Part shown: one piece after another, positions 18,841-20,892 of the stretch | Numbering within the stretch: the stretch's first letter is position 1 | Layout of the letters: each line of letters begins with the position of its first letter | Assembly: GCF_033153115.1 (NCBI RefSeq) | Contig: NW_026889778.1 | Coordinates: 43,524,001 to 43,588,000, forward strand | DNA from: Saccostrea echinata | Lineage: Eukaryota | Length of the DNA: 64,000 bases | Direction: 5' to 3' | Program-made: the position numbers and the translations under genes | The notes under the pieces: model-generated | The model's input: only the letters and a program-made list of their open reading frames with translations | Told to the model about the DNA's origin: nothing | Database searches by the model: none

Positions 18841-20609
18841 ATGGCGACAAATTCACAAAACAGAGCGACACTCTTTGAATGCGACAGTTGTCATCGTCTT
18901 TTTAAAAATATGGAAGAATTTGTTTGCCATGCATGTGATGATCCAGGTATATATAAACTTATTGCATATAATTTTTGTTCGGTTAACTAAAGTACTAAAG
19001 TTATTCTAATAGATAGTTTTCAGTAGGCCCAAATTAGGAAGAGTTATTTCCCGTTGACCGCCATATTGGAGGTCAACATGGTCACATTCCTGCGACAATT
19101 GGCAACATTTAATGCGGATTCCTCAATTTTTAAAATTATTTATACATTATTAATATTTTATTATCATTTTTTTATTACTTTTTTGGCTGAATTATGGTTA
19201 TGTATGGATTATATATAAGGCAAATGTATTTAAATTCAGTAGACATTTTGTCTGGGTCAGTGACTGGCATTCGCAACGGCTACGCTCAATCGTGATGTCT
19301 CAAACCCCCTTTCTACTTTATTGGCGTCGGAAGCAAAGGGGGAGGCTAACCCCCCCACCCCACCCCCCCACCCCCCCAAAAAACGTTTTGGGGCCAAGCC
19401 CCAATTTCCAATGCCTAGTATATTAGCCACCGAAGCTCCCTCCCCCCCCCCCAGTTCTGACGCCTATGTACTCTTCTAAGGTAGTAAGTACTTAGTGACT
19501 ATAAGGTATTACATGTTTAAGATTTTTAACCCCCAGTTACTAATTAAAACTGTTAAAGAGAGTATCAAGATAGTAAACCTTTATAAAAAAATGTTGCCAC
19601 TTCTATGGTATTGCAGTTGGTCATGAAAAGCTGATAAACATGCAATTGTAATGTAATACATTAAAGATTAAGGTATTATGCCCATGAGCCTGTAAGTGTA
19701 CACATTGCGTAGGAATTTGGATGTAAGTAAAAATGCCACATTTCTATGGAACATTTGCATGTATAATTTATGAAAGGACTGTTAAAAGAAATTTTTATCA
19801 GGATTGGGCAATGTAACATACCTCCAATATAAATGGTATTTAGTACCTCTTAATATAAATATTTTGTTTATTCATTAATTTTACACTTAACAAGTACTGG
19901 TGGCTATGATGGCAAAATTCTTCATCTGGAGGATGAAAGTCTGGATCTAGAAGGAGGAGATGGGAGACCCATAGAGCTGGCTCCTGACTCTGCTGTTCTT
20001 TGGACAAGACCAGCCACACTTCTCCTTATTGACCAGTATAAAAAGAACTGATCACAAGTGGAAAATTAAGAAAAAAGGCACTATGGAACAAAATTGCAGC
20101 AACTCTTAAACAAAAAGAAAAATGTAATTTCAGTGCAGCTCAAGTGGAAGGGAGATGGAAAACTTTGATGCGAGGATTAAAAAATGTTAAAAGACCACAC
20201 CAAAAAAAGTGGGACAGAAAGAAGTCACCCATATGAGGATGACATAGAATTTATGTCAGCAAAGCCTAACGTTCAACCAGAATGTGTTATTGGGACAAAA
20301 TCCAGCGCGGAAACCAAGTCGAGCACAGAAACCAAGTCGAGCACGGACACCAAGAGCACAGAGGAGAGCGACACAGGTAGGCCTGACACTCCTACAACTT
20401 CTACTAAGAGAAAATGTGTGTCTCCTGAAAAAAATCAAAGTTCAAAAAGGCGTCGCACAAATGATGTAGTAGAAAGCTTGGAGCAAATCATGAAGAATGA
20501 GAATCAGCGTTTTGAAGAACAAGTGGAAAGGAGACACCGTGAAAAAATGGAAATGTTTGGAATTTTTTTTTGGAAATTCTACAATCAAGCCAAAAAAAAA
20601 AAAAAATAA
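18841..20609 (+). pseudogene. Harbinger accessory Myb/SANT (trihelix) protein with N-terminal zinc finger; frameshifted
   Basis: Exon 1 (18841-18946) reads MATNSQNRATLFECDSCHRLFKNMEEFVCHAC with donor CAG|GTAT. Exon 2 (from ~19895) reads LWTRPATLLLIDQYK...KKALWNKIAATLKQKEKCNFSAAQVEGRWKTLMRGLKNVK/DHTKKSG...HPYEDDIE, then an S/T-rich linker, NLS-like KRRR and a coiled coil. Confidence 0.85.
19322..19468. mobile_element. Small MITE with G/C tracts in the Myb gene intron
   Basis: Inverted ends GGCGTCGGAA...TTCTGACGCC. Confidence 0.5.
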
Positions 20610-20727
20610 AAAAATAAAAAAAAAATAAAAAAAATAAATAAATAAATAAAAAATAAATAAATAAATATGAAAAATTGGATTTCATTTCATGAAGCTTAGT
20701 ACAAATATTTTTATATTTCCTTTCTAG

Positions 20728-20892
20728 ATGAGTGCAAAATATGCATGGAGGATGGAAAAAATTGCAGAAAGTGTAATTCTTCCTTGTGGACATCTGATAG
20801 CCTGTTTGAAATGTGCATCAAGTCTTACTGGTAATAAGTGTCCAATATGCAGGAAGCAAATCAACAAATCCATTAAGGTTTTCAAATGTTGA
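20728..20892 (+). pseudogene. RING-finger (C3HC4, IAP C-terminal type) exon inside the Harbinger element
   Basis: After acceptor TTTCCTTTCTAG it reads (D)ECKICMEDGK/IAESVILPCGHLIACLKCASSLTGNKCPICRKQINKSIKVFKC*, with one extra A in the A-run at 20756-20761. Confidence 0.88.

Follow-up and report, generated by a model that had tools for sequence, protein, structure and literature searches.

An oyster Harbinger transposon whose Myb gene is spliced onto a RING exon: a predicted ubiquitin ligase and candidate brake on the element

A Harbinger-type DNA transposon of the oyster Saccostrea echinata carries a Myb gene that is spliced from within its reading frame onto a RING exon, and that is likely also read through into a coiled-coil tail. 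The element occupies 18716-23285 (4.6 kb) of a 64,000-nucleotide stretch of genomic DNA (the window), with its Myb/SANT and transposase genes tail to tail between terminal inverted repeats (TIRs); it and its close copies are referred to here as family A. We favor, with moderate confidence in the statement as a whole, the reading that one gene supplies both forms and that the RING form serves as a brake and turnover factor on the element itself.

Element architecture and the exons of the Myb gene

The 17-bp 5' TIR (18716..18732, plus strand) begins GG, and similarity to the copy on C14 begins there; the 3' TIR (23269..23285, minus strand) matches it at 15 of 17 positions. The main exon of the DDE transposase (21255..22316, minus strand) is recognized by PF13359 (E 3.9e-14 and 1.2e-15) and, below that profile's cut-off, by HTH_Tnp_4 (E 4e-4). 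In the window copy this exon is broken by frameshifts and a 30-bp duplication, against a 346-residue open frame in the sister family B. A first transposase exon is predicted at 23077..23231 (minus strand). Further family A copies lie on C8, C14 and C16 and are 86-95% identical across matched pieces.

A PF13359-type DDE transposase with a helix-turn-helix, a second gene with a Myb/SANT domain (PF13837, E 7.8e-6 on the exon-2 fragment of the window and 1.8e-12 on a Magallana gigas relative), short TIRs starting with G and a 3-bp target site duplication (CAA/CAA at the C14 copy) place the element in the Harbinger superfamily (PHIS, Myb-encoding). The flanks of the window copy give no clean target-duplication match, and those of family B (ATA, TGT, ACG) match at 4/7 loci, two of which represent one duplicated site. 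In Han et al. 2015 (PMC4482050), the narrow PIF/Harbinger group has a TWA duplication and the NuwaII group a C|TNA|G target. The duplications here are 3 bp long but not TWA, which keeps the element out of the narrow group. With respect to NuwaII, the 3' flanks of family A read TTAG, TAAG and CAAG (3/3 ends), but family B departs from the pattern.

The Myb gene reads on the plus strand, and every one of its junctions is phase 1. Exon 1 (18841..18946) supplies the start codon, a C2HC-type zinc finger and a donor, and corresponds to residues 1-36 of M. gigas XP_034307601.1 (83% identical). Exon 2 (19894..20376) encodes the Myb/SANT domain and an acidic Ser/Thr linker, and ends at the internal donor CAG|GTAGGC (20374..20382), which is evident in the sequence, the contig junction and the copies. 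Past this donor, the read-through segment (20377..20600), with a basic KRRR patch and the coiled-coil tail, lies within a 351-nt intron (20377-20727). The RING exon (20728..20892; IAP/MDM2-type C3HC4, PF13920 E 8.4e-13) is followed by a 3' UTR (20893..21170), in which candidate poly(A) signals begin the positions 21147 and 21164; a contig extends to 21101, and the message end is putative.

A first-pass annotation of this DNA had described a strong donor (GT at 20377-78) in phase 1 of the Myb frame and an acceptor, TTTCTAG|AT at 20727|20728, in phase 1 of the RING frame; both descriptions hold. On an approximate weight matrix, the donor ranks first among the 22 GT sites of 20181-20727 (6.6 bits, with 0.9 for the next), and the acceptor has the richest pyrimidine tract among the AGs listed. 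In the same comparison of donor strength, family Q, which is free of any such module, also has a donor-like site (4.9 bits). Both splice sites are unchanged in 4/4 family A copies, the conservation check that the annotation had proposed.

Several features of the surroundings may be recorded here. In intron 1, a short high-copy repeat (19008-19091; depth ~300 in runs X1 and X2) is unlike the other copies, and low-depth contigs run unspliced from the intron into exon 2 (19650-19980), as pre-mRNA, an internal start or DNA would. Immediately outside the element is a degenerate tandem array of 40-60-nt units (25599-25834). A weak EB-module match (8148-8528, plus strand; E 5e-4, below cut-off) is perhaps an exon of a host gene. 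A Pfam search of 11 further long frames of the window returned no match.

Splicing onto the RING exon and a probable read-through form

The junction 20376^20728 is present in contigs of two sequencing runs, X1 and X2, skipping 351 nt bounded by GT..AG; the shorter flank measures 255 and 126 letters, and the depths are 8.5 and 3.4. Joining these positions yields the in-frame fusion ...EESDT-D-ECKIC that the first-pass annotation had predicted. The runs derive from one sample and are probably RNA, with no run found listed as RNA on record. Their contigs total 62 and 48 Mb against a 923-Mb genome. With 40 of 58 candidates scored, the four close genomic matches are all free of a break at the junction; the small totals and the absence of any intron-less copy from this set argue for RNA. 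The sequenced transcript is nearest to the C8 copy (23/30 listed variants, against 15 and 14), with the C8 insertion absent. It has a frameshift of its own in the Myb, and its net indels leave the frame one base out, so that it demonstrates splicing rather than a protein.

Gene models of other oysters contain the same product. M. gigas XP_034307601.1 (244 aa), the best of 30 RING-profile hits, is a zinc finger-Myb-RING protein; its junction reads EESDS-D-ECKIC, and it matches exon 1 and the RING exon at 80-100% identity. Three further accessions from M. angulata (Portuguese oyster) and M. gigas (Pacific oyster) give the same Myb-RING protein, and all four RefSeq accessions, which are predicted models, are named isoform X2. 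An older M. gigas model, P0218 (UniRef K1RC34), uses the same internal donor joined to an unrelated exon, and the donor may therefore capture neighboring exons. The motifs of that exon are suggestive of TatD-type nucleases.

Among the aligned RINGs, all eight zinc ligands are invariant, as is the Arg that follows them (5/5 domains). Copies with an intact frame share C3HC4 ligands, that Arg and a hydrophobic C-terminal tail with RINGs of the IAP/MDM2/MUL1 type (PF13920; PDB 6hpr, 3eb5, 8w5a), and the closest solved structures are cIAP1 and cIAP2 (E 2e-8 for these two), together with XIAP. The oyster protein differs in having a zinc finger, with or without a Myb, at its N-terminus, in lacking a BIR and in lying inside a transposon; no BIR family was found on P0185, P0190 or P0227, which sets them apart from IAPs. 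The eight ligands and following Arg of an IAP/MDM2-type RING would suit an active, dimerizing E3, and the zinc finger-Myb-RING protein is predicted to be a ubiquitin ligase.

The alternative product must be approached indirectly. No contig of either run spans 20378-20580 of family A; such contigs drop rare forms, and this hole carries no weight. Neither a contig nor a protein was obtained for the coiled-coil form of family A, and since the family has no donor 3' of the coiled-coil stop, that form would be an intron-retaining message. The intron-encoded coiled coil nevertheless aligns to families K, B and E at z 7-11 (1.9 for family C). Against families K and B it has pN 0.37-0.42 and pS 0.66-0.94, and the RING between families has pN 0.37 and pS 0.80-0.89, in both cases from local alignments, which favor conserved codons. 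On this sequence comparison, both coiled coil and RING are under purifying selection between families. From the selection on the coiled coil we infer a retained-intron form: the family A gene likely makes the coiled-coil product as well, and intact copies very probably make both messages. Of the two mutually exclusive C-termini that had been proposed, Myb-RING is thus seen directly, and the coiled-coil form is seen in sister families and probable in family A.

The proposal that one gene yields two products applies to intact copies and fails for the window copy, which is broken in both forms. Its exon-2 acceptor has AA in place of AG (19892-93), and its Myb frame is interrupted by 7 missing nucleotides at 20042 and one extra base at ~20187. 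Another extra base at ~20757 puts the RING out of frame after ECKICMEDGK, past the second Cys, and a shift in a T run near 20563 disrupts the coiled-coil tail. The window copy is a dead relic, unable to make either protein. The remaining three family A copies are also broken, at different places; in the C8 copy, a 2,368-bp element with inverted ends of its own is inserted in the RING exon (L031:2870-5237).

Sister families and other ligase modules

Family B, whose transposase is 45% identical to that of family A, is present in about 11 copies with open transposase, Myb and RING frames. Contigs of run X1 join two of its donors to one RING acceptor. The first donor, just 5' of the Myb and in phase 1, gives a zinc fingers-RING product without a Myb. 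The second falls within the stop codon of the coiled coil; splicing restores that codon, and the RING exon is left untranslated. Each joint is represented by one contig, whose shorter flank has 32 letters for the first and 30, below the 31-letter bar, for the second. A linker donor like that of family A was also considered for families B and F; in family B, a contig that crosses the site unspliced speaks against it. In the same family, a joint between the two element ends (L040:1824^6816) reaches depths of 822 (run X1) and 322 (run X2), and represents abundant short non-autonomous derivatives or empty sites.

Other bivalves offer comparable forms. Two Ostrea edulis models, X1 with a Myb and coiled coil and X2 with a RING but without the Myb, have their first 116 residues in common, map to family C and diverge at a phase-1 donor before the Myb. 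Pecten maximus X2 models are likewise zinc finger-RING without a Myb, and a Tegillarca granosa model is zinc finger-Myb-RING with no coiled coil, as in family A. The name "Myb-RING isoform" given in the first-pass annotation therefore suits family A but not family B, O. edulis or P. maximus, where the donor of the RING form is upstream of the Myb. Because sister families mostly drop the Myb from the RING form, the constant is a RING in place of the coiled coil; the Myb itself is retained in family A and some relatives only.

Families A, B, C, E and H all have a phase-1 acceptor at the RING exon. In family K the donor sits at the same Gly-Arg codons as in family A. Its copy L056, the one examined, yielded no RING; ~160 nt past the Myb stop there may be a tiny phase-1 exon that has a donor of its own. 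A tree of 30 transposase rows, from which L063 and L065 were omitted for having no transposase match in their stretch, groups the RING-bearing families A, B, C and E in a single clade (96/94) together with K and two unclassed loci; L045-L048 had no Myb match and so are unclassed. In a protein library, 3/150 Myb relatives carry a RING in their gene models and none of the 150 an F-box. A protein search with the family B Myb gave one hit, whose 12 Dreissena cluster members are without a RING, and a query of the ESM Atlas with P0072 returned neither a feature hit nor any structure match at TM >= 0.5.

Some of these proteins already have other names. P0190, P0192 and P0227 are bivalve RefSeq proteins labeled mib1-like, LRSAM1-like and APD1-like E3 ligases; they look like RING isoforms of Harbinger transposons, with mapping for P0190 only.

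Outside the RING clade, an F-box or LRR-like exon occupies the space between Myb stop and transposase in three lineages (F, I and J; loci L053:3996-4655 and L058:4626-5288, both plus strand, with L059, L060 and L062; L061/L072; L044/L064). In lineage F, PF12937 matches at E 2.5e-6 and 4e-4 with phase-1 acceptors, and support in lineages I and J is weak. Their position between the two genes would place these exons within the element ends. A tentative generalization, which we hold to be somewhat less probable than not, is that bivalve Harbinger elements have a "ubiquitin-ligase slot" past the helper stop, with an IAP-type RING occupying it in one clade and F-box/LRR modules having entered it independently in up to three other lineages. 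Splicing would then yield an element-encoded E3, aimed in family A by the Myb at transposon DNA and degrading bound proteins, for proteolytic control or anti-silencing.

A possible brake, its rivals, and what follows

Intact copies would make two proteins, a Myb helper with a coiled coil and the predicted zinc finger-Myb-RING ligase. Harbinger helpers bind the TIR and carry the transposase into the nucleus, according to PMC2836001, and the C-terminal parts of Ping Myb, ALP2, HDP2 and NAIF1 bind the nuclease, according to PMC7282668. By analogy to these, the coiled coil would be the transposase-binding part; a predicted complex of the family B transposase and coiled-coil tail, computed without alignments, scored 0.02 and does not bear on this. 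Splicing at 20376 would remove this tail together with the basic patch and substitute the RING, leaving a form that should be unable to build a transposition complex. The Myb-RING of family A could sit on element ends without productive transposase recruitment and ubiquitinate what is bound there, the likeliest targets being the transposase or helper of the element itself. It would then be a brake and turnover factor, with its dose set by the splice ratio. Binding to element ends would not be the general route to a substrate, as the RING forms lack a Myb in family B, O. edulis and Pecten.

The main rival assigns the same two products to counter-defense, with the RING form ubiquitinating host silencing or chromatin proteins to the benefit of the element. 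It suits the Myb-less and F-box forms as well, since both suggest that the substrate is found through protein contact; the RING form is also the one seen in the sample, and PMC12730594 offers a precedent for anti-silencing cargo. However, no host substrate or matching host motif was seen, and family A keeps its Myb while dropping exactly the putative transposase-binding tail, a dominant-negative layout. We regard counter-defense as possible but rather unlikely.

Constitutive splicing in family A, with Myb-RING as sole product and the coiled coil an intron leftover, would accord with the very strong donor, with contigs that contain the spliced form only and with the missing donor after the coiled-coil stop. 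It is improbable nonetheless: the coiled coil is kept at the protein level relative to families K and B, family A has transposed (4 copies), which needs a nuclease-binding helper, and the named RefSeq models are X2. Less probable still is that the RING exon is a captured IAP fragment and the splice products functionless noise. IAP-type RINGs are very numerous in the S. echinata genome and all four family A copies are broken, but the RING stays in frame and phase across families with 45-53% identical transposases and synonymous sites near saturation, is also kept in ark clam and scallop models, and has pN far below pS, by which passive carriage is already largely refuted. That the junction in X1 and X2 reflects a DNA deletion in some copy, a thought invited by runs that are only probably RNA, may be set aside as scarcely credible given the exact GT..AG ends, the intact genomic matches, the small contig totals and the same junction in models from other species.

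The brake reading, which we prefer, has partial counterparts among known elements. RAG1, a Transib-derived recombinase, ties a RING E3 to a DDE transposition machine; its RING is within the transposase polypeptide, whereas that of the oyster element is an alternative exon of the helper gene. In CACTA (TnpA/TnpD) and for the Drosophila P-element repressor, alternative splicing yields an active product and a regulatory one; the choice there concerns the transposase message and involves no ubiquitin ligase, in contrast to the helper gene here. CACTA splicing is noted in PMC2836001, where Harbinger/Ping/Pong are contrasted with it as having two independent genes and no alternative splicing. The oyster element resembles PHIS/Harbinger, as described in PMC4482050 and PMC2836001, in its DDE transposase plus Myb/SANT gene, GG-starting short TIRs, 3-bp duplication and ~4.6-kb length, and differs in duplications that are not TWA and in the alternative last coding exon for a RING. 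Zisupton, as cited in PMC12062965, likewise has an isoform bearing a ubiquitin-ligase module (an F-box), but in another superfamily and on the transposase-side protein, whereas the oyster RING replaces the coiled coil of the helper. PMC12730594 describes SET and TET cargo enzymes in other Harbinger lineages, and VANC, SET and TET cargo genes thought to help other transposons against silencing.

A literature search turned up no Harbinger in which a RING or F-box is spliced in; supplements, Repbase Reports and subscription papers, outside its scope, may describe such families. The main texts of PMC9179366, PMC9392472, PMC13668399, PMC12730594 and PMC4482050 make no mention of RING, splicing or ubiquitin, and those of PMC13159474 and PMC12062965 none of Harbinger. 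Isoform gene models are already in RefSeq under host-like names.

If true, an element-encoded layer of proteolytic control or anti-silencing would be one not described for cut-and-paste transposons. Its basis would be a third product, made by splicing and held under purifying selection in several bivalve orders, whose ligase module was seemingly recruited more than once. For annotation, some "mib1-like," "LRSAM1-like" and "APD1-like" E3 genes of bivalves are likely transposon products. The open transposase, Myb and RING frames of family B make the idea directly testable, and the whole points to an unrecognized protein-turnover route by which DNA transposons may control themselves or their host.
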